A DNA stretch of 64,000 nucleotides from contig CM059452.1 of assembly GCA_030390025.1 (NCBI GenBank), positions 6,758,001 through 6,822,000 on the forward strand, in the 5' to 3' direction. The stretch comes from Squalus acanthias (lineage: Eukaryota). Position numbers and translations under genes: made by a program. A model generated the notes under the pieces. That model saw nothing but the letters and a program-made list of their open reading frames with translations. It ran no database searches and was not told the origin of the DNA. This document shows positions 17,118 to 58,369 of the stretch, in pieces; the first letter of the stretch is position 1, and each line of letters begins with the position of its first letter.

Positions 17118-17173
17118 CTGCAGTCACCGTCACCATGGTGCCTTGTCCCCAGTATTCGAAGTAGTTGGTATAC
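17118..17173 (-). CDS. IGHJ: IgM JH segment, apparently fused in the germline to a D2 remnant (DJ)
   Basis: Reads g-TAT ACC AAC TAC TTC GAA TAC TGG GGA CAA GGC... = YTNYFEYWGQGTMVTVTA, then donor gtaaga. It is preceded by a 12-spacer RSS rather than the 22/23 RSS expected of JH. Confidence 0.9.
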
Positions 17174-17201
17174 CACAGTGAGACTCGCCGTGCCAAATAC
17201 T
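17174..17201 (+). other. 12-spacer RSS upstream of DJ
   Basis: cacagtg (17174-17180) + 12 bp + ccaaatact (17193-17201). No nonamer-like sequence at 22/23 bp. Confidence 0.8.
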
Positions 17202-17514
17202 GCGGTGGACTTTTAACTGCAAAATACAGAGATGAAATTCCACAGCGCTCTCAAAACCCTGATTCCGACTCCCCTAAGAGTGAATCAGTGAGATATTTCA
17301 GTTTTTGCTGGTAATTATCTTTCTAAAGGAGATTAGAACACTTCTGAAGCACCTGTGCAGATTTAGCACGACAATCAACATTAATAAAGCAGAACACTTC
17401 CATACATTTTTACAAATCTTCATTACTTTTAACGATTATTTTAATTTAAGCCTAATGTTCTCCGACGCTCCTGCCGTGGCAGTGATCGCAGGTGTGAGCA
17501 AACTCCCTGTCTGG

Positions 17515-17552
17515 GGTTTTTGAATGAGGAGCTCGCTCTGTACAGCACCGTG
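17515..17552 (-). other. 22-spacer RSS downstream of VH-D
   Basis: cacggtg + 22 bp + tcaaaaacc on the minus strand. Confidence 0.92.
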
Positions 17553-17868
17553 ACCCCCTGTACGTCTCTTGCACAGTAATAGATGGCGGTGTCTTCGGTC
17601 CTCAGGTTCTTCATGTCCAAAATGAAGATGCTGTTTGAAGTGTCTTTGGACGCAGTAAATCGGCTCTGAATCCCTGGGGCGTAGCCATTGTTCGATGAAC
17701 TTTGATATCTAACCAGCCACTCCAGCCCCTGCCCGGGATACTGCCGGACCCAGTGCATGGTGTCGCTGCCAAGATCGAACCCGCTGGTTTTACAGGTCAG
17801 GCTCAGGGAGCCTCCGGGACTCCTGGTCTCTACCTCCGGCTGAGTCAACACGACATCCGACTGGACAC
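17553..17868 (-). CDS. IGHV: IgM VH exon with a germline-fused D1-like tail (VD)
   Basis: Acceptor ttacag. Encodes [12 protein letters not shown]...[24 protein letters not shown]...TAIYYCARD, then 11 extra nt gtacagggggt before the heptamer. Confidence 0.95.
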
Positions 17869-17995
17869 CTGTAAAAACAATCAAAAACCCCGAGGATTAA
17901 TCCTGGTGAAATGATTCCTGACTCTGTAACATTCCAGAGAGAGACTAACACTGAGACAGTAACAGTGAGAGACTTGGACAATAAAAACTACTCAC

Positions 17996-18041
17996 CGGAT
18001 AAGAAAGCCAGCAACAGACTGAGAGAAAGCGCCGACCTCAT
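17996..18041 (-). CDS. IGHV: IgM VH leader exon
   Basis: ATG...MRSALSLSLLLAFLS-G, phase-1 donor gtgagt. Confidence 0.92.
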
Positions 18042-30838: not shown

Positions 30839-31315
30839 TGTTTTTGTACGGACTGACTGCGCCCCTGTAACAGTGTGGGGGCTCAGCGCACAGAAATACA
30901 CGGCAGAGTCAGAGACAAGAGCGCCGGAGACGATTAAAGAACCGTTTTCTTGTCTTGGTCCAAATCAGCAGAGAATCGGTCTGGGGTATCTGGAGACCTT
31001 ACCCCCTGCCCCTTGCCGTATCTCTTCAGTAAATATATCGGAGCTTCCCCGGGGTACTGGATGTACCAGAAGAGAGTTGAGCCACCGTACTCTGCCGAGT
31101 AACTACAGTTCAGTATTATGGTCTGTCCTTCCTGAGACGTTAATTCTGGCGGATCCTGAGAAACTGAATCTTCGCCACTCGTTCCTGTAACAAAATACAA
31201 AATATGTGAAAAGCCTGTGAGTGAATACAACCCATGGAACACACACTGGCCATTTAAACATGGACTCACCGGGCAGCACGACCATTATTATCAATAATGA
31301 ACATGGGGAGCACAT
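30839..31315 (-). pseudogene. TCR alpha/delta V segment with a 1-bp frameshift in FR3 (leader 31270-31315, V exon 30878-31184, 23-RSS 30839-30877)
   Basis: Leader MCSPCSLLIIMVVLP. V reads GEDSVSQDP...LNCSYS...LFWYIQYPGEAP...DRFSADLDQDKKTV; the shifted frame continues LIVSGALVSDSAVYFCALS. RSS cacactg-23-acaaaaaca. Confidence 0.9.
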
Positions 31316-36020: not shown

Positions 36021-36335
36021 ATGCGGAACCGTCTCGCATCGCTCCTCATCATTATATCACTTCTCAGTAAGTATTTCCTCCCCAGTAAACAGCCATTCTC
36101 CCCCTGACTGCTGTAACCCAGGTGTTATTGTTGGTGAAATGGTGATGATGATGGTGGATCAACACACATTTCATCTTGTCTCTAATTTCCAACACGGTAT
36201 GAATCTGAATTTTAAAAACTCGCTGGTCTGTCCTTTTCCTGTTTCAACATGTTTTTTTCAGATCTGAATCATGGTGATTCTGTCATTCAGACGCTGTCTT
36301 CAAGAGTTAAGACAAAACGAGAAGCGGTGACTTGT
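36021..36335 (+). pseudogene. Orphan TCR V leader (36021-36066) plus truncated V 5' fragment (36262-~36335)
   Basis: MRNRLASLLIIISLL-gtaagt; acceptor ttttcag then LNHGDSVIQTLSSRVKTKREAVT, which ends abruptly. Confidence 0.7.
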
Positions 36336-36461
36336 GGAGTGTTCTGTTTTCTCGCCCTTTTTAGAAGGTCCCTGTGACTCTCACTGTGGAGACTGAATTA
36401 TCGCTTGTTTATCGGCGTGAGAGCGCCCTCTGGTGAGCACTAACCGGAACTCTCAGTGTGG

Positions 36462-36995
36462 GGTTTTTGTACGGGATGCGCTATATCTCTGAAGCAATGT
36501 GGGGCTCATGGCACAGAAATACACGGCGGTGTCGGAGATCCGGACTTTGCCGATCGTTAGCTCGGTAATCTTGGTAGTTTTATTAAACCTAGAATTGAAT
36601 CGGTCAGTAACGTCATGGTTCCGGTTCACATTCCCTCCGATAAGATGAAGTACGTACTGTGGTGGCTTCCCGGGGTGCTGACTGTACCAGTACACATAAG
36701 GGTTAGTATCGCTTGTTTTCAAGGTGCAGGTTAGTGTGACATTGCTTTCCTCTTCAACCGTCATTTCAAGGACCGTCTGTTCCACTGTGTCTTGGTGGCT
36801 CCATTCTAAAATAAAATAACAGTAATAGTCATCACCATCACATCATCATCACCATCAGTGTCATCTTAAGCAACATAATCATCATCATTTTAGCAACAAT
36901 AACATCTGGGTTACAGCAGTCAGGGGGAGAATGTGAAGGAAATACTTACTGAGAAGTGATATAATGATGAGGGGAGAAGTGATACGGGTCCACAT
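36462..36995 (-). CDS. TCR alpha/delta V segment, intact (leader 36950-36995, V exon 36502-36805, RSS 36462-36501)
   Basis: Leader MWTRITSPLIIISLL. V reads WSHQDTVEQ...VTLTCTLK...VYWYSQHPGKPPQYVL...DTAVYFCAMS. RSS cacattg-24-acaaaaacc. Confidence 0.92.
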
Positions 36996-37800
36996 GATCT
37001 TCCCTCCGTCTGTAAGTCTGCAGTCCGGGAAATCCACTTTCGGAGCAGAAATACAGATTCCCGCCCCACTGCACTGCTGATCCAAGCAATGCCAAACAGG
37101 GAACAGCGGCAGCAATCTCTCCAATAACACAGGGCAGGCAAGGCGGGTCAGAGCTAGAGCAGCAAACGGAAGCTGTGGGCGGGGCTACCGCGGGCAGTGT
37201 TACCGCAAGATTTGTCTCTATAATTTCCAGTTGATGACGGCGAGAAACACGTGACCACGGCGCCCTCTGCCGGTGACTCTGAGAATTTTACACTGTCGGG
37301 AAAATCGGTAGAGTAAAGTGTGAGTTTATCGGTGGGGCAGTTTCCAGAGGCCTGTTATTGTGAGACAATGTGTATTGTTTCAGACACTTCAGCTTTGTAA
37401 ACAGGGGGAAGGGAAATGCGAGTGAATTTAAAGGAAAGGACATTTTTCTTTAATTCTGAATCTCTTTATGGCTTTTTCTTACCTTTTAACTTTATGTTTC
37501 TCACTCGTTATTTCTCACATTCTTTCATTTCTCTTTCCCTCCTTTCCTAACCTGCTGTCCTCTACACTCTCATTATTACACCGCTTTTTCTCTTTCTCTC
37601 TCATTCTCTCTTTGGTGTATTCTCTTTCTTTTCCTCTGTCTATGTTTCCAACTCCTTCATTTCTCACTTTCTTTAAATCATTCTCTTCAATATATCATCA
37701 TTGTTCTGTGCTCAGTCCCTCTGCCCTCCGATTATTATAACCGGGCCCCTCCCAATCCCGTTGCTCCAAACACAGCAGAGCGGCGCTCACCCTCGGGGCA

Positions 37801-38173: not shown

Positions 38174-38349
38174 TTTCCGATCAGATGAAGAGGAGGCTGA
38201 AAGAACTGTACACAGAGGTCGGGTTAGAACCAGGACACTGATATTATATTCAGGGTAATTAACAAAGAGACAGACTCTCGCTTCTTGTCCAACGCAGAGG
38301 TTTCTTCCTGTCGAAATAACGAAACAAGCTGTATCTCTGGGTTTACCCA

Positions 38350-38970
38350 CCCCGGGCCGCCCACACTCAGTGTTTCTCACTGACGCCAGCTCACACTGTC
38401 TCTGAGCTCACACTGGGCCGCTCACACTCAGTGTTTCTCACTGACACCAGCTCACACTGTCTCTGAGCTCACAACGGGCTGCCCACACTCAGTGTTTCTC
38501 CCTGACACCAGCTCACACTGTCTCTGAGCTCACACTGGGCCGCCCACACTCAGTGTTTCTCACTGACACCAGCTCACACTGTCTCTGAGCTCACACCGGG
38601 CCGCTCACACTCAGTGTTTCTCACTGACACCAGCTCACACTGTCTCTGAGCTCACACCGGGCCGCTCACACACAGTGTTTCTCACTGACACCAGCTCACA
38701 CTGTCTCTGAGCTCACACCGGGCCTCTCACACTCAGTGTTTCTCACTGACACCAGCTCACACTGTCTCTGAGCACACACCGGGCCGCCCACACACTGTTT
38801 CTCACTGACACCAGCTCACACTGTCTCTGAGCTCACCCCGGGCCGCCCACACTCAGTGTTTCTCACTGACACTAGCTCACACTGTCTCTGAGCTCACTCC
38901 GGGCCGCCCACACTCAGTGTTTCTCATTGACACCAGCTCACACTGTCTCCGAGCTCACACCGGGCCGCGA
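38350..38970. repeat. 61 bp minisatellite (~10 copies)
   Basis: Unit gggccgcccacactcagtgtttctcactgacaccagctcacactgtctctgagctcacacc. Confidence 0.95.
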
Positions 38971-40270: not shown

Positions 40271-41902
40271 GACTGAGTTCTGGAGACTCCGTCGATCAGT
40301 GCCCAACGGAACCCCAATATCTGGAAGGATTTTTAAAAATTAAGGGAGTGAAGGGTTATGGGGAGCGGGCAGGCAAATGGAGCTGAGCCCAAGATCAGAT
40401 CAGCCATGATCTCATTAAATGACGGAGCAGGCTCGAGGGGCCAAATGGCCTACTCCTGCTCCTATTTCTTATGTCTTAACCTCGATGAGCATTAATTGTA
40501 ACTATTCAACCTCCCTAGCGAGCTACTACCTGCAGCTTTAACGTCAGAACCAGAATACGGATCCACTCTCATAATTAGGATACATTCCTTTGGAAAGGGT
40601 GAAGTTAATAAGAACATAAGAAATAGGAGCAAGAATAGGACACTTGGCCCCTCGAGCCTGCTCCGCCATTCAATAAGATCATGGCTGATCTTGGGCTCAA
40701 AGCCACTTCCCCGCCAGCTCCCCATAACCCTTCACTCCCTTATCTTGCAAAAATTTGTCTATCTCCACCTTAAATGTATTTAATAACCCCGCCTCCAAGC
40801 TCTCTGGGGCAGAGAATTCCACAGATTTACGACCCTCTGATAGAAGAAATTCCTCCTCATCTCAGTTCTAAAAGGGCGACCCTTTATTCTAAAACTGTGC
40901 CCCCGAGTTCTAGATTTCCCCACGAGGGGCAACATCCTCTCTGCATCTACCTTGTTGAGCCCCCTCAGTATCTTATATGTTTCAATAAGATCACCTCTCA
41001 TTCTTCTAAATTCCAAGGAGTATAGGCCCAGCCTGCTCAACCTTTCCTCATAAGTCAACCCCCTCATCTCTGGCATTAACCTAGTGAATCGTCTCTGAAC
41101 TGCCTCCAATGCAAATATATCCTTCCTTAAATAAGGAGACCAAAACTGCACGCAGTACTTAAGGTGTGGCCTCACCTGTTTTTATACTCCAACCCCCTTG
41201 AAATAAAGGCCAACATTCCACTTGCCTTTGTGATTACTTGCTGTACCTTCATGCTAACTTTTTGTGTTTCATGCACAAGGACCCCCAGGTCCCTCTGAAC
41301 TGTAGCATTTTGTAATCTCTCTCCATTTAAATCATAATTTGCTTTTTTATTTTTCCTGCCGAAGTGGATAACCTCGCACTTTCCCACATTATACTCCATC
41401 TGCCACATGTTTGCCCACTCACTTAGCCTGTCTATATCCCTTTGCAGATTCTTTGAGTCCTCTGCACAACTTGCTTTCCCACCCATCTTTGTATCATCCG
41501 CAAACTTGGCTACATTACACTCGGTCCCTTCATCCAAGTTATGAATGTAGATTGTAAATAGTTGGGGCCCCAGCACCGATCCCTGTGGCACCCCACTAGT
41601 TACTGTTTGCCAACCGGAAAATGACCCATTTCTCCCGACTCTCTGCTTTCTGTTAGTTAGCCAATTCTCTATGCATGCTGATATATTACCCCCAACTCCG
41701 TGAGCTCTTATCTTATGCAGTAACCTTTTATGTGGCACCTTATCGAATGCCTTCTGGAAATCCAAATACGACCGTTTCTCTGTCATTTTGGAAACTTCCA
41801 GAAATATCGTTGTTTTCAACCTGACTGAGCTGACAGCGCCGTGTACTACTGTGCACTGAGGCCCAGAATGAGAATGGCCTCGGAACACCTTGTACAGTAA
41901 CC
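40271..41902 (+). pseudogene. TCR V pseudogene split into three pieces by two CR1 insertions
   Basis: 40271-40332 LSSGDSVDQ..EG; 40480-40607 SINCNYSTS..YYLQL*RQ; 41770-41863 DRFSV...DSAVYYCALR. Degenerate RSS cagaatg-23-acagtaacc (41864-41902). Confidence 0.8.
40608..41769 (-). mobile_element. 5'-truncated CR1 LINE inserted in the V pseudogene (a second short CR1 tail at 40333-40477 on +)
   Basis: YLDFQKAFDKVPH, GVPQGSVLGP, KFADDTK motifs and 3' tail. Confidence 0.92.
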
Positions 41903-42606
41903 ATGTTCTATGAGATCAGGTCAAAGAAGTTACTTTAAACCCGGCCACCAGGTAGCGCTGACAGAGCGCAGATTCCCACCGCCGGTCACCTGACATCAAC
42001 CAATACTGACTGACACTTCCTCGATACAAATGAACGTGTCATTTCTTTTCATCTCATATTGATGTTCATTAATATTATACTTTCCCTTGCAATTGAATAA
42101 CTTCACAAGTTCTTTAAGTGTAAGCAAGCTGTGCGCCTCCCGAACCTCGGATCGGTTGCCGTTTTGTTCTATTTCCCACCGCTAGTTTCAGCCACTGGTT
42201 TTTACCCACTTCACTGATGAAGATTTTGTTAACTATTGAATGATATAATAATTCTACAATTCCTGTCACGAGTCTGCTTGCCCCGAATTTTTAACGAATG
42301 TGAAACTAACGCAGCCCTTATACAGAGGCAGAGTTATGTAAAGTCCGAAGAGGACAATATTACTGAATTCAGTTCCTCACAGGTGGATCCTACGTGTGAC
42401 AACACTGCCCGCGGCAGCCCCGCCCACAGCTTCCGTTTGCTGCTCTCGCTCTGACCCGCCTTGCCTGCCCTGTGTTATTGGAGAGATTGCTGCCGCTGCT
42501 CCCTGTTTGGCATTGGTTAGATCAGCAGTGCAGTGGGGCGGGGATCTGCATTTCTGCTCCGACAGAGGATTTCCCGGATTGCAGAGTTACAGATTCAGGG
42601 AGCGTC

Positions 42607-43117
42607 ATGTGGAACCGTCTCGCACCGTTCCTCATCATAATATCACTTCTCAGTAATATTTCCTTCCCAGTAAACATCAGTTCTCCCTCTGACTGCTGTA
42701 ACCCAGATGTTATTATTGGTAAAATGGTGATGATGATAATGATGATAATCACTATTCTATTATTATATGTTAGAATGGAGCCACCAAGACACAGTGGAAC
42801 AGTCGGTCACTGAAATAACGGTTGAAGAGGAAAGTAATGCCACACTGAACTGCACCTTGAAAACAAGCGATCGGAGCCCTACAGTGTTCTGGTACAGTCA
42901 GCACCCCGGGAAGCCTCCACAGTACGTGGTTTATTTTATTGCAAGGATAGTAAACAGGAACCCCGACTTCACTGACCGATTCTCTTCTACGTTCAATCAA
43001 ACTACCAAGATTACCGAGCTAACCATCAGCAAAGCCCTGATCTCCGACACCGCCGTATATTTCTGTGCCATGGAGCCCACACTGCTGCAGAGATATAGCG
43101 GATCCCGTACAAAAACC
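42607..43117 (+). CDS. TCR alpha/delta V segment, intact (leader 42607-42652, V exon 42774-43077, RSS 43078-43117); paralog of the V at 36502
   Basis: Leader MWNRLAPFLIIISLL (donor gtaata). V reads WSHQDTVEQS...TLNCTLK...VFWYSQHPGKPPQYVV...DTAVYFCAME. RSS cacactg-24-acaaaaacc. Confidence 0.92.
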
Positions 43118-46100
43118 CCACACTGAGAGTTCCAGTTACTGTTCACCAGAGGGCGCTCTCACCCCGATAAACAAAAGCAATAATTCAGCCTCCACAGTGA
43201 GAGTCACAGGGAGATTCTTAAAAGGGCAAAACACACAATACTCAACATCAGCAGGTGAACACCACTGGCGGAGCTATATTAGCTGGTGATTTCAACTCCC
43301 ATTTATAATAAAAAAATAACTTCACAAATCGATCTGTGGCACCTTACCTCCCCTTTTGCCTTTCAATGCCCTTTCCGTGCCTGCCTGTCCTTCTCATATC
43401 TTGTCTCTACTCTTCACCCATAATCCTGTGAGCTTTCTTCTTCCAGTCTTTAGTTTAACGAGGTAAAACCTTTGCTGCTTCTCTGTACATTTATTCAGAA
43501 CCGCTCCAACCCAGCTTCCCATAAACAGGAACAGCAGCCAGGGCAGTGAATACACACATATACACCGACATCTGAACAGTTTTCAGAATATCCACCAGAG
43601 GGCGGAAGGTCACAATATTCCTTTTGTGGCTCAGACCCCGGGGCTTTGACTTAAATGCTGTTTCTCCAATAGTTGTGCAAATGTTGGAATGAATTAAAGA
43701 TTAATATTTCAAATCCACTTGCCACAATGGGCTGGGTCGGTACATCGGGCAATGATCATCAAAAAAGACATCCATCATATCTTGGATTGAATTCTGATAC
43801 TAACCAGTGGGCAGGACAAGAGAGTGGAAGAATGTGAAGATGGGGCACGGAATATTAAAATGTGAATGAAAGACACACCCTGAGATCTGATTTCTGAAGC
43901 CACTAACTGTGGAGATCGATGTTAAAGGGCGAAAGACAAACCAAAAACTCTTGTATTGTGTTTGCTTTTCTGCACCACGTCCTTTTCTAATATGAGTGAA
44001 AGTTGTAAGGGGTTTTTGACGCCCTGCTGATGTTGCGCTCTGGTTAACGAGGATCCGCCCTACACCTCACCCTGGGGGCTTTGAACCCGCTCCTGGCGCT
44101 CTGCCCCCCGGAAGTTAGAGCAGATGAGCAGTAATTAGCTGAAAAGCGCCGATGCGCCACTCTCTCGATTCTCCCTCATTGCAAATCCAAAATCTGAAGA
44201 TTATGGATCCCTAAATTGATCATTACAGGCCCTAAACAGGTCACACTCACCTGATAAAAAGAAAGTAAGCCTTGCACTTATATTGCGCCTTTCACGACCT
44301 CGGGACGTCCCACAGCGCTTTACAGCCAATGAAGTACTTTTGACGTGTTGTCACTGTTGTCATGTCGGATGCGCGGCAACCAATTGCGCACAGTAAGCTC
44401 CCACAAACAGCAATGTGATAATGACCAGATAAACTGTTTTAGTGATGTTGATTGATGGATAAATATTGGTCAAGACACCGGGGATAACTCCCCTGCTCTT
44501 CTTCGAAATAGTGCCATGGGATCTTTTACGTCCACTTGAGAGAGCAGACTGGGCCTCGGTTTAACGTCTCATCCAACAGCCAGCACCTCCGACAGTGCAG
44601 CACTCCCTCAGCACTGCACTGGAGGGTCAGCCTAGACTTGAACCCACAACCTTCTGACTCACTGGCGCGAGTGCCAGCACTGAGCCACACAAGACACAAG
44701 ATAACAAGATAAGACATTTTTCACACTCATTACCATTCTAAAAGCAGGATTTTTTATCAATTGATATTTGCATCAACTGATGCTTACAGCGTAACTGCGG
44801 CATTGTAGTGTTTCAGCACAGCTCCCACAATATCATCGTTTTGATGTTAATTATGGTTCTCTACAAGGAGTTAATGGAATATACTGTGAGACCAAACACA
44901 AAGATCAATAACTTCAATATTAGCAGCAAACCTAATTCTCAAAGTAATCATTGCTCTGCGTGGGCCATCTTCGGTGCCCCATACATTATTGCAAGTCCCA
45001 TGACACAGTTCAGTGCTCTGAGCAACAGGTGCCTAAAAGGTGTTAGCTTTTGGGGTCAGTTCCATGCTGAACTGTGAATCGGTGGGCAGGCAAAAGGTAT
45101 TTAAAATGTGAGATGGGTAGTTGTATTGCGCAGAGCTGAAACAAAGGACAATTTTTGAACCAAGTGCAGTTTAGGACCCTGCGGCAGCCGATCCGGCGGT
45201 GCTGAGGTCACGGTTCCAGGCTCTGTCCAACACGGCCATCTTTGCGTGGCGTACAGTCGGCCATGTTTCTGTGACGCACTGTCCGTCTGTGGCCCATAAC
45301 TCGCCTTTTGTCCTTTGATGTCCTTTCCGTGCCTGCCTGCTATATTGTGCGGCCCTTTGCACATCTCCCCTGTTCGTTTCCCGGACCCTTTGATCGCGGC
45401 CTGTGAATAGGGTTTATTTGATCAGAGTATGTTGCTGGGTCAGTAACAGTTTATACACAATGAATAGATTTCACAAGGTAGTGATTGTGCTCTTTAAAAC
45501 AAGCCCCAGCACAAAGTTCCCCAATGTCGATTGGCCTTCCGAGTAACGCCTCATTCACTGTCACTGCACCTGGAAACTCTGAATATTAGAGACTTGAAAT
45601 CAATCATTAGTTAATTGAAACATCATTTTAAATGCAAACCACAGAAGGGGGCGGTGCAGGAAACAATTGTTCAAGTTACAGGGAGAGTTTATTATTTATG
45701 TATATTGTGTGTATCTGCCTGTACATTGAAAATGGCCCTGGACTGTCTCATATTATAATCTGACACTCAGTTGCTGGACTGAGGGAGTGCTGCAGGGTCT
45801 GAGGCGCCGTCCTTCGATCAGACGTTTAACCGAGGTCCCGCCAGCCCGTTCAGCAGATGTTAACGAATCCCCGGCACTACTGGAATAAGAGCGGGTGATT
45901 CTCCCGGTGTCCTGGGCCCACATTCCACCCTCAACAAACACCACCCAATAAAACCACATGAACCGACCTCCCAGCTCATTACTGCGGGACAAAGGACAGC
46001 GGCAGCCTCTGCTGACAGAACAACTCCCCCCTGTACATCAGACTAATGTGGGAGGGGCTTTCACATCGGGCTCAGAGACCCAATGAAGCGCCAGAAAACT

Positions 46101-46319: not shown

Positions 46320-46362
46320 ATGGGAATCCTCCTTGTTTTCACCCTGTGTGTCTGTTTACCCC
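46320..46362 (+). CDS. NAR-TCR V1 leader exon
   Basis: MGILLVFTLCVCLP with phase-1 donor gtgagt. Confidence 0.9.
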
Positions 46363-46509
46363 GTGAGTACCGATCAAACAAACCGACATTGTGTGGATTT
46401 AATATAAAGCTGCCCGGGTCCATCCGAATTGCGGACACTGTCTGGGTTTTAGCCCCGTTGTGTGGTTCGGCTCTGATGGCCCATTAAACTCTCTCTGTTT
46501 AATTTCCAG

Positions 46510-46796
46510 GCTCTTTCAGTCAGTCAGTGACACAGACCCCGCCAGCGGTGACCAGGGAGGAGTGTCAGTCTCTCACCATCACCTGCGTTTTCTATGGTGG
46601 TTCTTGGGATTATTTTGAAAATGGACATTTCTTCAGACAAACCCAGACCGGGACAGAGTGGGAGCGGATCTCGAGCGGAGGGCGATTTGTTGTGAGGACG
46701 AATAAGGCAAAAAATACATTTTCTTTGGAAATTCGGGATGTGCGAGTTGAAGACAGCGCCACCTATTACTGTAAAGCTGAGTACTGGTACAGACCA
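46510..46796 (+). CDS. NAR-TCR V segment (IgNAR-like V), unrearranged
   Basis: QSVTQTPPAVTREECQSLTITC...FFRQTQTGTEWERISSGGRFVV...FSLEIRDVRVEDSATYYCKA. Shows the NAR-type CDR2 deletion and a non-canonical FR1 Cys. RSS cacagtg-22-acaaaaact at 46797-46834. Confidence 0.92.
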
Positions 46797-47158
46797 CACA
46801 GTGATGGGCCTCGGCTTCCCGCGATACAAAAACTCTCACTGCAGATTGTGACAGAAACAAGTGAAGAAGCGGAGTTAATCTGCCGTTAAACCCACAGTTC
46901 CGCCTCGCACCGTCTGCCCCACAGTCTAGTTTATAATCAGATTGGATTATTGCAGTTAACACCTTGAGTTTTGTAAATGCTGAGTGTGTGCGGGCGGTGA
47001 CGTCTTTCCCGGGATTGGTGTCAATGAATGGCGATTGGGAATGACTGATCCCAGTTACAATTCCCGAACACCAGATGGGATCCTGTTCTAACAGCTGGAA
47101 CCGGGAACCGCGGTCCCCGCCGTGTAACTAATGTCCCCCCATCTCACCGAGTACCGGG

Positions 47159-47227
47159 GGATTTGATGCTGACTTGAAACACTGTGTTTACTGGAACCTC
47201 ACAGTGGATGAGACCTGAGCAAATACC
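47159..47227 (+). other. NAR-TCR D segment (47187-47199, tttactggaacct) flanked by 12/12 RSSs
   Basis: ggatttgat-12-cactgtg | D | cacagtg-12-gcaaatacc. Confidence 0.88.
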
Positions 47228-47583
47228 TGTGTACAATTAAAATATAAATTCCCCGGGCCCGGAACCTGAATTGTAGGTTTGATCTTATTATCGCTGTAAT
47301 CTGGTTTAATTTAATTGTAATTTCCTGCTTTCAGTTATCTTTCTTTGATATTTTGCTCCGTTTCTATGAAGCGCCCATCTCCGGCCCGTGTTCCTGGGCC
47401 ATTTTACTGAGAGCTCAGAGTCTCACAAACAACAGTTTGAACCGACGGGGACTGTGGAACACGGAATATTGTTTATTGATCCCTGGAATAATTGGGCAGC
47501 GCCGACTGTCTGGTGATGTGTGGCCGGCAGATTGAGGTGTCGGTGGTTCTTGTACCGGGGTGACTGAGAGCGGTGTCACTGTG

Positions 47584-47631
47584 GTTCTAGATATGTGGAT
47601 GGATCCGGGACGGTGGTGACTGTCACAGCCG
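47584..47631 (+). CDS. NAR-TCR J segment with 23-RSS (47545-47583)
   Basis: ggttcttgt-23-cactgtg precedes SRYVDGSGTVVTVTA-G|gtaagt, with a NAR-like DGxGT motif. Confidence 0.92.
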
Positions 47632-51016: not shown

Positions 51017-51059
51017 ATGGGAATCCTCCTTGTTTTCACCCTGTGTGTCTGTTTACCCC
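51017..51059 (+). CDS. NAR-TCR V2 leader exon
   Basis: Identical to leader 1 (MGILLVFTLCVCLP), with the intron retained. Confidence 0.9.
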
Positions 51060-51206
51060 GTGAGTACCGATCAAACAAACCGACATTGTGTGGATTTAAT
51101 ATAAAGCTGCCCGGGTCCATCCGAATTGCGGACACTGTCTGGGTTTTAGCTCCGTTGTGTGGTTCGGCTCTGATGGCCCATTAAACTCTCTCTGTTTAAT
51201 TTCCAG

Positions 51207-51548
51207 GCTCTTTCAGTCAGTCAGTGACACAGACCCCGCCAGCGGTGACCAGGGAGGAGTGTCAGTCTCTCACCATCACCTGCCTTTTCGATTGTGATTT
51301 TTGCGCTCGTTCTTTAACGCGTGGGGATTTCTTCAGACAAACCCGGACCGGGACAGAGCGGGAGCCGATCTCGAGCGGAGGGCGATTTGTTGTGTCGACT
51401 AATAAGGCAGACAAGACATTTTCGTTGGAAATTCGGGATGTGCGAGTGGAAGACAGCGCCACCTATTACTGTAAAGCTGAGTACTCGTACCGGAAGGATC
51501 ACCATGATACTGTGGATGGATCCGGGACGGTGGTGACTGTCACAGCCG
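51207..51548 (+). CDS. Germline-joined, in-frame NAR-TCR V(D)J exon
   Basis: 342 bp exon with ag/gt ends encoding ...EECQSLTITCLFDCDFCARSLTRGDFFRQ...YYCKAEYSYRKDHHDTVDGSGTVVTVTA-G|gtaagt. No RSS remains between V and J. Confidence 0.93.
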
Positions 51549-53509
51549 GTAAGTGACTCCAAACCCCGCCGTGTTACAGACTGTCCCGGTTAATGTTCAC
51601 CGTCAGTTTATTATTGTGATCAGTATTACTAGAATCCCCTCAAAATCAAACAAACCGGTTATCTAAGGGGTTTCATTGCAGCTTTAGATTGGGGAGCAGA
51701 ATATAAACCGGGGCCGGTTACGTGTGTTAGTCCGCAGAGAGGAGGTGTGAGACCCCCACGTAGCAGGCAGACTTGGGGTTTACCCCATCTGGACCATCAT
51801 TGGTTTAACGGGGCCCTCGGGGATCCCATGAACATCCCGGAATCTCACTCTGATCCCCAGTTGGTTTAAATGAGCGCCGATTGTCAACACTCCGGCCTCC
51901 GCTCTCGGTGTTAACTGTGACTGAGGGAGCTCTGCCTGTCCCTGTGGGCAGCGCAGGGGGTCACAGAGCTCCGTCCTGGGCAGGAGATTCCAGTCCGAGC
52001 CGGGCAGTGTGAATGAGGTACCGGGAGAGTGAACCCAAAAATACAGCGTCTGGTCCGATACCCGCAGCGGCCCGTCCGATACGTTATTGCCGGAACAGTT
52101 GATGCTGGCTGTGGGAATGTACTTCAGAGAAGAGTAAAGAATATAAGAAGCAAAACGTTCTATAGCATCATGTTTAGCAGTGAAGTGGCTAATTCTGTAA
52201 TACTGATCAAACATATTGTGACGGATAATTGTTGATATTTATAGGTGCCATTTTCACACAACAGATTATTTAGTGTGAGAATTGTTTCGCTGCATAGTTC
52301 ACATCATATGAATCATGTTTGTATATTAATATTGTTCTTGGACAAGTAGGAACACTATCTTTATAATCTCTGCAAGAAAAGTTGAATTCAAGAAAAGGTG
52401 GGATGACAGGGCTGTCCTATGATGAGGGATTGTGCAGAATGGGCCGATACTCCTGGAGTTTAGAAGAATGAGAGGTGATCTCATTGAAACATACAAGATT
52501 CTGAAGGGGATTGACAGGGTAGATGCTGAGAGGTTGTTTCCTGGCTGGAGTGTCTAGAACTAGGGGGCATAGTCTCAGGATAAGGGGTCGGCCATTTAAG
52601 ACTGAGATGAGGAGAATTTTCTTCACTCAGAGAGTTGTGAATCTTTGGAATTCTCTGCCCCAGAGGGCTGTGGATGCTGAGTCTTTGAGTATATTCAAGC
52701 CTGAGATAGATTTTTGGACTCTAGGGGAACCAAGGGATATGGAGATCGGGCGGAAAAGTGGAGTTGAGGTCGTTGATCAGCCTTGATCTTATTGAATGGC
52801 TGAGCAGGCTCGAAGGGCCGTATGGCCTACTCCTGCTGTTATTTCTTAAATCATTACCATACATTTGAAAGTAAAAATAAAAGATCACGATCTAAATTAA
52901 GACGAGGAAGGGACTTTCATCCTATTTAATTTGTCTATCCAAAAAAAAGACAAACTCGGTGCTGGAATCAGGGGTTTGGAGGTTGGGCGGGTGGTGGAGG
53001 TGGGGGTGGGGTGAAGTAAGCAGCGATCCATTCGGCCTTCCCTCAGAATCGCTCTCAGTCAGCGCGCAGGCGTCCAGCACAGACACAGCACTTAAAGCAG
53101 CACAGCTCGACTTGTTTTTCCATCTCTGTCCCTCCTCCATCTCCCACCCCCAAATAATCTTTCCAACACTAGAATGATTCTTTATCTCAATGTCCTAATA
53201 ACCCCTGCATTGCCCACAATTATTGTGTTTATTTCAAAATTAATGTCAACAAGCCAATCAGGTCCGATACCTGCAGCGGCAGAAATACTGGAGCACAACA
53301 TGGCGGGGCTTCAGATACACGTGATCCGCTTGTAGGTCTGGATGGCATTTCATTATTGGACACTCAATGACTGAAATTAGTTGTATTATATCTGACATTT
53401 ATTCCAATTGCTTTTATATAAACAATCATTTTCCCTCCACGTTTCCCGTTTAAGTCGAAAAGTAAAAGCTTCGAACTACAGACGCTGTTAATTTTTTTTC
53501 TATTTTCTA

Positions 53510-54620
53510 ATCAATCCAATGGGGAATTTACGAGGAACTTCTTTACCCAGAGAGTGGTCAGAATGTGGAACTCGCTGCCACAAGGAGCAGTTGAGCCGAA
53601 TAACATCGATACATTTAAGGGGAATCTAGATAAGTAGGTGAGGGAGAAAGGAATCGAAGGATCTGTTGATGGGGTGAGATGGAGTAGGGGTGGGAGGAGG
53701 CTCGTGTGGAGCAGTAACACCGGCATGGACCGATTGGTCCCAATGGCCTGTTTCTGTGCTCTACATTCTGTGTAATTCTCTGTAATATTTAATGTTCATG
53801 TTTGAGAGATCGGATTGCAGTAATTTATCTGTATCCATGGTTACTGTTAACTGAAACAACACTGGGCAGTGAGCGAGTGAGGGCGAGGTTCTAATGTTCC
53901 TATAAAGGAGAGCAGGAACACCCGAGGGAACAAGTACAGACTGGAGGGAAGCCCATTTAGAACCAGCAAGAAATCATTCACCGAAAGGGAGAGAAATATC
54001 GGACTTCACCGGCCGGGCGGGGGTGTGGAGACACCGGTCTCTGGGCCGTTCAAAGCACAATCCGACACCGGGGCAGTGAGATTTACTGGAGGGACGGGCT
54101 GCGATTGGGCTCCGGCCCTTTTCTCAGCTTTGGATTTCTTGCACTCCTGAGAAAAGACATCAGCAGCAATCCACACATTTCTGGAAAGATTGAACAGGCG
54201 GGGGTCTATTCTCTGGAAAAGAGAAGAAAACGAGGAGACCTGATGGAGGTGATTAAAATGATGAAGGGGTTCGATAGGGGCACGTGGGGAAACTGTTTCC
54301 ATTGTGGGTGAGTCCAGAACAAGGGGCCACAAATATAAGATAGTCACTAACAGAACAAATAAAGACATTGGGAAGAATTTATTCACACAGAGAGGAGTCA
54401 GAATGTGGAACTCGCTGCCACACGGAGCAGTTGGAGCAGATAGCGTTGATGCATTTAAGGGGAGGTTTGAAAAATACAGGAGGGGGGGGAGGAATCGAGA
54501 GATACAGGGGTCAGAGTGTGAAGAGGTAATTAGAGTGGGGGGAGGCTCGTGTGGAGTATAAACACCGCACAGACGAGTTGGGCCGAATGGCCTGTTCCTG
54601 TTCTGCAGATTCTGCAAAAT
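53510..54620 (+). mobile_element. Cluster of CR1 3' fragments
   Basis: FTQRVVRMWNSLP-type motifs at ~53540 and ~54380 with tails. Confidence 0.7.
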
Positions 54621-55607
54621 GTAAAACTCAGAGAAAACTCCGCCCGGAGAACACGGGAGAGAATCAGCCAAGGGCTGAAGGAATTGAAGTTGTCAGAGAG
54701 CCGGAAGAGCCAGTTCCCAGTGAGTAACAGTAAAACCACTGCGGAAACTGCACAGACTGAACCCAACCGACAACTGAGAGACTTTGCGACAAGTTCTCAG
54801 GCTGGCAAAAAACCACAAACAGCACAAAGTGAGCGACCCAGATGTAGAAATAAAATGAAACTAACTGTAAATAATTCAAATTAAAGTGAAATGGAGCAAA
54901 TGGGGCCCCACTGATGGAAGAAAAGAGACAAATAGAGCGAGAGGCAGACAGGAGCTCCCGTGAACTGTTAAACTGCAGTAAAAGATTGACCTTTGACCCA
55001 CAGATTTTCAGTGTCAGTTTGGCTCAATCGGTGCTGATGAATCTCACTAGTTTCTGTTGGATCTTGCTGTGCGCAGTGACATTACACAGCCGGGTCACTC
55101 TCGGTCAAACATCATCGGAATGTGGTTGTCTCAGTGAGGAGGAGAATGGACTATTATTTTTTCGGCTTTATCTTTCACCAAGAAAAATAAACACAGACAT
55201 TTATAGAAATCATAGAATCATACAGCAGAGAAGGAGGTCATTCGGCCCACCTTGCCTCTGCGGCTCTTTGAAGGAGCTATTCAATTAGTCCCACTCGCCC
55301 CGCACTTTCCCCATAGCCCTGACAAATTTTCCTTTTCCAGTATTGATCCAATTTCCTGTTGAAAGTTGCTATTGAATCTGCCCCCACCACCCTTTCCTCA
55401 GCGCCCCCACCCGTCCACACGCCGCCCCACCCCCCCCCCCACCCCCGCCCCCGCCGGTCCCTTTGCCAATGACAGTGAATAAAGTTGGAACAGGCTTCGA
55501 AAGAAGAACCGCATTAGCGCGAGAGGCAGAACTATTCCTGTGATTGACAAGTGTCCCCGGGTAAACAGCAGCCAAATAAAAAACATTTCCACATTTTAAT
55601 CCTGCAG

Positions 55608-55913
55608 ATTCCAGTTTCTCGGTGTCCCAGGGTCCGCCTCTACAATCCTCTGCTGCCGGTGACACCGTTACTTTAAGCTGCGAATATTCAGGGTTCTGTC
55701 AGCACACAGTACACTGGTACCGTCAGTCCCCAGGGCAGGCTCCGAAATACCTGCTTCAGAGACACACTTCAGGAGAGGGGAATAAAGAAAACGCTGCCGG
55801 GGGCCGAATTTCTGCTTCTGTCGATGGCGCGCAGAAAATCAGCCGGTTAAACATCGCGAAACTGCAACTGAGTGACTCCGCTGTGTATTACTGTGCACTG
55901 AGTCCGCGCACAG
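55608..55913 (+). CDS. Supporting TCR-delta V for NAR-TCR (no canonical leader seen; CDR1 Cys)
   Basis: Acceptor cctgcag, phase 1. Encodes DSSFSVSQGPP...VTLSCEYSGFCQHTVHWYRQSPGQAPKYLLQR...LQLSDSAVYYCALS. The CDR1 Cys is the known partner of the NAR-TCR FR1 Cys. RSS cacagtg-23-acaaaaacc at 55914-55952. Confidence 0.9.
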
Positions 55914-57980
55914 CACAGTGATACAGAGCACGGAGAGAGCCGTACAAAAACCTGAACATGGTGGGGATTACAGACACACAGTGATACAGAGCACGGAGAG
56001 AGCCGTACACAAACCTGAACATGGTGGGGATTACAGACACACAGTGATACAGAGCACGGAGAGAGTTCACAAACCTGAACATGGTGGGGATTACAGACAC
56101 ACAGTGATACAGAGCACGGAGAGAGTTCACAAACCTGAACATGGTGGGGATTACAGACACACAGTGATAGAGAGCACGGAGAGAGTTCACAAACCTGAAC
56201 ATGGTGAGGATTACAGACACACAGTGACAGAGAGCACGGAGAGAGCCGTACAAAAACCTGAACATGGTGCGGATTACAGACACACAGTGATACAGAGCAC
56301 GGAGAGAGTTCACAAACCTGAACATGGTGGGGATTACAGACACACAGTGTTACAGAGCACGGAGAGAGTTCACAGTCTGAACATGGTGGGGATTACAGAC
56401 ACACAGTGATACAGAGCACGGAGAGAGTTCACAAACCTGAACATGGTGAGGATTACAGACACACAGTGTTACAGAGCACGGGAGAGTTCACAAACCAAAA
56501 CGTGGTGGGGATTACAGACACACACAGATACAGAGCACGGAGAGAGTTCACACAGCTGAACATGGTGGGGATTACAGACACACAGTGATACAGAGCACGG
56601 AGAGAGTTCACAAACTTGAAGATGGTGGGGATTATACACCCACAGTGATAGAGAGCACGGGAGAGTTCACAAACCTGAACATGGTGGGGATTACAGACAC
56701 ACAGTGATAGAGAGCACGGAGAGAGTTCACAAACCTGAACATGGTGGGGATTACAGACACACAGTGATACAGAGCACGGAGAGAGTTCACAATCCTGAAC
56801 ATGGTGGGGATCACAGACACACAGTGATACAGAGCACGGAGAGAGTTCACAAACCTGAACATGGTGAGGATTACAGACACACAGTGATACAGAGCACGGA
56901 GCGAGTTCACAAACCTGTACATGGTGGGGATTACAGACACACAGTGATACAGAGCACGGAGAGAGTTCACAAACCTGAACATGGTGGGGATTACAGACAC
57001 ACAGTGATACAGAGCACGGAGAGAGTTCACAATCCTGAACATGGTAGGGAGTACAGACACACAGTGATACAGAGCACGGAGAGAGTTCACAAACCTGAAC
57101 ATGGTGGGGATTACAGACAAACAGTGATAGAGAGCACGGAGAGAGTTCACAAAGCTGAACATGGTGAGGATTACAGACACACAGTGATACAGAGCACGGA
57201 GAGAGTTCACAAACCTGAACATGGTGGGGATTACAGACACACAGTGATACAGAGCACGGAGAGAGTTCACAAACCTGAACATGGTGAGGATTACAGACAC
57301 ACAGTGATACAGAGCACGGAGAGAGTTCACAAACCTGAACATGGTGGGGATTACAGACACACAGTGATACAGAGCACGGAGAGAGTTCACAAACCTGAAC
57401 ATGGTGGGGATTACAGACACACAGTGATACAGAGCACGGAGAGAGTTCACAAACCTGAACATGGTGAGGATTACAGACACACAGTGATACAGAGCACGGA
57501 GAGAGTTCACAAACCTGAACATGGTGGGATTACAGACACACAGTGATACAGAGCACGGAGAGAGTTCACAAACCTGAACATGGTGGGGATTACAGACACA
57601 CAGTGATACAGAGCACGGAGAGAGTTCACAAACCTGAACATGGTGGGGATTACAGACACACAGTGATACAGAGCACGGAGAGAGTTCACAAACCTGAACA
57701 TGGTGAGGATTACAGACACACAGTGATACAGAGCACGGAGAGAGTTCACAAACCTGAACATGGTGGGATTACAGACACACAGTGATACAGAGCACGGATA
57801 GAGTTCACAAACCTGAACATGGTGGGGATTACAGACACACAGTGATACAGAGCACGGAGAGAGTTCACAAACCTGAACATGGTGGGATTACAGACACACA
57901 GTGATACAGAGCACGGAGAGAGTTCACAAACCTGAACATGGTGAGGATTACAGACACACAGTGATACAGAGCACGGGGAG
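55914..57980 (+). repeat. ~60 bp tandem array (~34 copies) derived from the V's own 23-RSS
   Basis: Nearly every unit begins cacagtgatacagagcacggagagag, and unit 1 is the bona fide RSS. Confidence 0.97.
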
Positions 57981-58369
57981 AAAATACAAGTATTCTCCAC
58001 GAAAGTATTCTCGAATGAATCTTAGAATTTTACCGCACAGAAACAAGTGATTAATCCCACCAAGTCTGCATTTTCCTTCCCGCTGCTCACACCCTTTAAT
58101 ATTCCCCTTTTGAGAATCTCCTATCTATTTCCCCTGTTAAAATATTTCATGTATTTATTCCACAATTACACCTCCTTCTGTGTAAATAATTGTTTTTCTC
58201 ACGATAAAATTGTATATTTTGCCGCATCATATTTCACCCTAGGGGTTACATTTATTGTTCCGCCTGTTTCCACAGGGACCAGTAGAGTTTCTTCTTTGCT
58301 TTTCTTTGGTTCTTGGTGTAGATTAAAGGATATACGTGTTCCAAATTTTAAAAGTAATTCATTAATTAA

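Follow-up and report, generated by a model that had tools for sequence, protein, structure and literature searches.

Tandem repeats with RSS-like units have been described in the mouse gamma (major) satellite, which contains cryptic recombination signal sequences (RSSs) (Cowell 2003, PMC2193808). Two of three cloned cryptic RSSs recombined, RAG-dependent breaks were seen, and the authors' "safe site" idea is akin to a decoy (PMC2193808). However, that satellite is a 234-bp repeat making up about 6% of the genome, and its signals are chance-like, with no V-gene origin or attachment (PMC2193808). The shark array analyzed here differs in that its unit reproduces a genuine V RSS and lies inside a receptor locus. 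Use of an alternative RSS outside a segment's own is known for mouse TRBJ1-7 and TRBJ1-2 and for human TRGVB, where germline DNA is retained in the joint (PMC6857471). Two units of the shark array, units 2 and 6, would act in the same way, but the mouse and human cases involve one or two unrelated signals rather than tandem RSS copies (PMC6857471).

The described shark NAR-TCR resembles our locus in that a NAR-type V sits on a supporting V-delta, rearrangement occurs twice, and the genes belong to an IgH-TCR alpha/delta complex (PMC5931798, PMC12227049, PMC6795676, and PMC3457774). The available portions of these four papers make no mention of a repeat at the supporting V RSS or of a germline-joined NAR-TCR V exon. 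Literature searches, whose coverage was incomplete and took in few subscription papers, returned no V gene with a tandem array built from its RSS, and such an array is apparently undescribed. Ordinary minisatellites (VNTRs) have interspersed variants, ancestral units at one edge, and one homogeneous end. The 59- to 63-bp shark unit shows the same polar variation and is additionally a recombinase target. What we describe is a minisatellite with a true RSS as its unit, common to a lineage; any function is putative.

The supporting V-delta and the array behind it

Besides a supporting V, the window (the whole 64-kb stretch of DNA that was analyzed) contains a minus-strand IgH cluster, two NAR cassettes, and, distributed over both strands, five TCR-type V segments. 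This layout agrees with what is described for cartilaginous fish, in which IgH and TCR alpha/delta form a linked complex (PMC12227049). The supporting V and the array that follows it are as follows.

55608 to 55913, plus strand: supporting V-delta exon, leaderless, in an open frame, with an extra Cys in the CDR1 region
55914 to 57981, plus strand: minisatellite in which, by TRF and unit parsing, 34 units are full and a 35th, from 57957, is partial
55914 to 55952, plus strand: unit 1, the V's own consensus 23-RSS, with nonamer ACAAAAACC and a 23-bp spacer ending CCGT
55977 to 56015, plus strand: unit 2, a complete 23-RSS with one nonamer mismatch (ACACAAACC) and no coding segment of its own
56220 to 56258, plus strand: unit 6, a complete consensus 23-RSS (ACAAAAACC) with no coding segment of its own
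56040 to 57956, plus strand, with unit 6 among them: 31 short units of 59 to 60 bp, the heptamer mostly intact and the spacer 19 to 20 bp

The extra CDR1-region Cys of the V at 55608 to 55913 is in the motif CEYSGFC. No leader was found in the ~4 kb upstream (51550 to 55607), where the best candidate had a hydropathy of 1.25, compared with 2.85 to 3.36 for the leaders found for three of four control Vs. A leaderless exon and an extra CDR1 Cys are marks of a NAR-TCR supporting V-delta. The exon also lies downstream of a NAR V-D-J, and its splice phase matches that of the NAR exon. On these features, we identify the V as a NAR-TCR supporting V-delta, and the NAR-TCR context proposed in an initial annotation of this DNA holds. 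The nearest named protein was a Callorhinchus Ig-like domain (52%; protein search, three matches among nine candidates). The PDB matches to the supporting V were generic antibody chains, which do not reveal its type.

TRF of the 64-kb window placed the array at 55914 to 57981, with a period of 60, 34.4 copies, and 94% matches. Each unit consists of an RSS (39 or about 36 bp) and a 24-bp tail. By parsing, the 34 full units are 60 bp (25 units), 59 bp (6 units), or 63 bp (3 units) long and comprise 18 distinct types. Thus, the units are between 10 and 100 bp, run head to tail, and include interspersed variants, as in a minisatellite. All but two of the 35 units start with CACAGTG, the exceptions being unit 11 (CACACAG) and unit 21 (AACAGTG). 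A perfect 23-RSS pattern occurs twice in the window, versus zero times in 100 shuffles. An origin from other satellites of the window was ruled out; unit 1 has matches beyond the array solely at other V RSSs. The RSS-derived array in this window is real.

Much of the initial annotation is borne out by this parsing. It had derived the array from the RSS of the supporting V-delta, and the unit is indeed that V's 23-RSS plus 24 bp. It had nearly all of ~34 units beginning with CACAGTG (33 of 35 by our count), complete 23-RSSs in three 63-bp units at 55914, 55977, and 56220 (each parsed with a 23-bp spacer), and most other units at 60 bp with a 20-bp spacer, which agrees with the 25 units of that length. 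Its view that the array begins exactly at the V heptamer is right as to the start at 55914, but the 5' border is less sharp than that, since a copy of CACAG at 55909 to 55913 precedes the first heptamer. That copy and the ACAG/CACA at every unit junction constitute microhomology for slippage. The V frame ends in YYCALSPRTAQ and then, as had been claimed, meets a TGA at once (55919 to 55921, in frame). Beyond its YYC motif, this V is about three codons longer than four other TCR Vs of the window.

As recombination signals, the units are of unequal quality. Units 1, 2, and 6 have CACAGTG, a spacer of 23 ± 1 bp, and a consensus-like nonamer, whereas 31 of the 34 full units lack such a spacer from a consensus heptamer. 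Among those 31, 23 have a 20-bp spacer before TCACAAACC, 2 have a 19-bp spacer, and 6 have a further decayed nonamer. Spacers short by 2 to 3 bp reportedly reduce RAG cleavage severely (PMC7753069, citing Steen 1997), and the 31 short units should therefore be poor partners. Because the units end in GACA, 26 short units can also be read from two bases upstream, as CACACAG, a 22-bp spacer, and TCACAAACC or a variant of it. With four to five mismatches, this reading is a weak, putative cryptic signal. No 12-bp-spacer reading of the short units was found within three nonamer mismatches, and the minus strand of the array units gave no useful signal (best candidate, six mismatches). Several published findings argue that the short units need not be wholly silent: CAC is required for cleavage and a consensus nonamer is not absolutely so (PMC10536018), cryptic RAG targets are frequently without a canonical nonamer (PMC12711392), scanning RAG uses convergent cryptic signals (PMC13190342), and cryptic RSSs in satellite DNA can be cut in cells (PMC2193808).

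The array in sequencing runs

We compared run contigs with positions 55465 to 55976 (the V and unit 1) for 4 of 23 listed runs, namely, the DNA runs X1, X6, and X13, plus X15. The three DNA runs carry the organism labels A, B, and F (X13 is F), and X15 is under label B. Contigs with the V, the unit, the junction from a unit end to the next heptamer, and the shortened spacer were present in all three DNA runs. Short spacers made up 0.93 (X1), 0.86 (X6), and 0.82 (X13) of the total, against 31 of 34 in the window. Because the unit, its junctions, and the short-spacer majority occur in three DNA runs under three labels, the array is neither an assembly artifact nor confined to this genome. The assembly itself may derive from X1. 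Several listed positions (55499, 55502, 55603, and 55619) set all X13 contigs apart from the window, and label F is therefore probably another species. Unit depth at 55940 was 24 (X1), 10 (X6), and 35 (X13) times the median V depth; contig depth is not copy number, and these are orders of magnitude that fit tens of units per V copy.

Many variant contigs cover the V in the three DNA runs. In X1, single variants had depths of 10 to 32, and the contig shared by the V end and unit 1 had a depth of 340. The supporting V is a multigene family. Thus, the earlier statement that this is the only supporting V for both NAR cassettes is true within the window but not genome-wide. The listing for the target region (V and unit 1) covered 28 of 375 piece rows and 17 of 28 loose-end rows; it contained no contig from the V to unit 2, and no unique sequence directly after unit 1 appeared in those loose-end rows. 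We infer that arrays sit behind V copies in those three runs. Loose ends at 55902 come from more distant V relatives that continue into other sequence. At 55581 and 55828, the window has a letter that none of the compared DNA-run contigs shares, reflecting either private alleles or consensus errors.

The tandem could be real and the length of this copy still wrong, for example, if it were merged from paralogues. The V is multicopy, the window differs from all compared DNA-run contigs at the two positions just given, three units differ by just one G in a run, and none of the contigs listed spans 55465 to 55976. However, 18 unit types in a clear 5'-to-3' gradient, depth ratios (10 to 35) of the same order as 35 units, and junction contigs in every DNA run make such inflation very improbable.

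X15, which we guess to be an RNA run, yielded three contigs, with a 164-bp variant V at a depth of 4.85, the unit at 586, and no joint; DNA carry-over would look alike, so these contigs carry no information on expression. In one X15 contig, a repeat unit directly abuts sequence resembling the 3' flank of the array (58254 to 58283), which suggests a larger duplication of array and flank under label B. There was no RNA run among the matches listed in the run search. A metagenome scan gave three weak loci, none with the unit, and viral contigs gave no matches.

Proposed origin of the array and its likely effect on V joining

The 63-bp form of the unit is ancestral, as its spacer ends in CCGT, as in three of the five other TCR V RSSs of the window (the other two end in CCGC and TCGT). 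Compared with it, the majority unit has lost three spacer bases and has two nonamer changes. Both extra 63-bp units are within units 2 to 6 (P = 0.019), and the first 17 units lie 2.35 changes from the majority unit, compared with 0.88 changes for the last 17 (P = 0.009). Judged from the letters, this order fits edge retention of ancestral units and recent 3' growth, as in ordinary minisatellite turnover. Sites that vary among the 60-bp units number 3 of 7 in the heptamer and 16 of 53 elsewhere (Fisher P = 0.67; a low-power comparison of 25 related units). Per base, the nonamer-like part is among the most variable (0.027, versus 0.010 for the spacer). TRF found nine other minisatellites with a period of at least 19 in the window. 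When arrays were placed at random, 13% of placements put an array end inside an RSS, and 4% put one no more than 5 bp from a heptamer border. The ancestral units retained at one edge, the homogeneous 3' half, the absence of extra heptamer conservation, and the nine other minisatellites point to neutral slippage and unequal crossover.

The account that we favor, and consider probable, is that a working RSS gave birth to a locus-specific minisatellite that is now mostly an inert passenger, at the price of a few dead-end joins. A 63-bp tandem duplication of the RSS and its 24-bp tail would have arisen by slippage at the ACAG/CACA microhomology around the heptamer. As the sequence shows, one copy lost the three spacer bases and acquired the two nonamer changes seen in the majority unit, and this 60-bp variant may have spread by unequal crossover and slippage, latest in the 3' half, while ancestral units were kept at the 5' edge. 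The run contigs in part suggest that expansion preceded the split of the lineages under labels A, B, and F, and the array probably moved with duplicated V copies. RAG would join the V mainly at 55914. Some dead-end cuts would go to units 2 and 6, with a weaker pull from the cryptic readings, and these cuts are presumably a cost that is tolerated rather than a function. Because units 2 and 6 are good RSSs, a certain number of dead-end joins is to be expected there.

The initial annotation was right that joins at downstream units would be nonproductive, since they would carry in the TGA, and we judge it right that the proximal RSS would stay in place after such a join. Its suggestion of a dedicated function is not upheld, given that 31 of the 34 full units are without the RAG spacer length, conservation of the heptamer does not exceed that of the remaining unit, and the unit order fits minisatellite turnover. 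The decoy and loading-platform roles that it raised are hypothetical. It had also suggested a retry reservoir, from which we see no gain. Every downstream join would be dead and would spend the partner 12-RSS, so that a second try would need another and would yield nothing beyond the first try at 55914.

A junk array could also have been shaped by selection if complete RSSs farther downstream divert joins and so inactivate the allele, leaving only spacer-dead units free to multiply. This would agree with the predominance of short-spacer units (82 to 93% in the three runs and 31 of 34 in the window) and with the in-frame TGA in any downstream-unit join. However, a single variant can sweep an array without selection, and two complete spare RSSs persist. 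We regard such filtering as unlikely.

Several points count against a passenger. The array has been kept under three organism labels, and persistence could reflect selection; its 33 perfect heptamers are all in the orientation of the V RSS, and scanning RAG uses convergent cryptic signals (PMC13190342); and cleavage needs CAC but not absolutely a consensus nonamer (PMC10536018). A selected array would be a RAG sink or holding site that lowers, delays, or raises supporting V joining, with array length as a dial, and it may, for example, time that joining against the NAR V-D-J joins. The retention under three labels at depths fitting tens of units per V copy, the single heptamer orientation, the 26 weak 22-bp readings beside two full RSSs, and the cutting of satellite cryptic RSSs in cells (PMC2193808) are all consistent with this idea. 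However, there is no excess heptamer conservation, the nonamer-like part varies more than the spacer, the other seven V RSSs of the window are all single copies, and D-delta and J-delta were not found in the 64-kb window. Selection for regulation is a doubtful explanation. We give equally little credence to its fullest form, in which a heritable, variable-length array of a gene's own RSS on the NAR-TCR supporting V-delta genes of this shark lineage absorbs or holds RAG and sets the frequency or timing of V joining, possibly having been seeded by germ line RAG nicking.

If the array is inert, as we favor, then a V gene tolerates more than 30 consensus heptamers and two spare complete RSSs directly behind it. 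The array would then be a natural measure of RAG's spacer-length strictness in chromatin, as well as a trap for RSS annotation and for the assembly of shark TCR loci. If it is active, it would be a new way of tuning V usage and might bear on the ordering of the NAR-TCR's two rearrangements. Nature has here supplied a test of whether RAG is distracted by spare signals, and paralogues with different array lengths would make that test internal to one animal.

The NAR cassettes and the wider locus

The two NAR cassettes lie upstream of the supporting V.

46320 to 47631, plus strand: NAR cassette 1, unjoined, with a leader and a V (46510 to 46796) that has a 22-bp RSS
47187 to 47199, plus strand: D of cassette 1, flanked by two 12-RSSs
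47584 to 47631, plus strand: J of cassette 1, with a 23-RSS
51017 to 51548, plus strand: NAR cassette 2, with a leader (51017 to 51059) and a germline-joined VDJ exon (51207 to 51548) that has an open frame and matches the supporting V in splice phase

The cassettes are 86 to 92% alike in three blocks, and the top PDB matches of the cassette 2 VDJ exon are VNAR domains. Cassette 2 has extra cysteines in the CDR1 region and adjoins its unjoined sister, cassette 1. The germline-joined exon, 4.4 kb upstream of the array, implies that RAG has acted on this locus in the germ line. With its border near the RAG cut site and this exon beside it, the array leaves room for a RAG-started origin.

Several other features of the window were seen. 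A short sequence at 41829 to 41870 was rejected as a second supporting V; it has 14 codons and no RSS and is a 3' V stub (ADSAVYYCAL) behind a dispersed repeat. The closest relative of the supporting V in the window is a frameshifted TCR V with an intact-looking 23-RSS (30872 to 31167, minus strand). The V at 38 kb has a 61-bp minisatellite (38348 to 38968) just upstream, and no leader turned up within 1 kb of this V. The TCR Vs at 36333 to 37201 and 42401 to 43247 are inverted duplicates (83%), both with 24-bp spacers. On the minus strand at 17119 to 18041, an IgH V with a 22-bp RSS faces a single 12-RSS that precedes a fused, D/J-like segment, and the interval lacks a free D; this IgH cluster is partly germline-joined, and its C exons appear near 6.5 to 7.4 kb.
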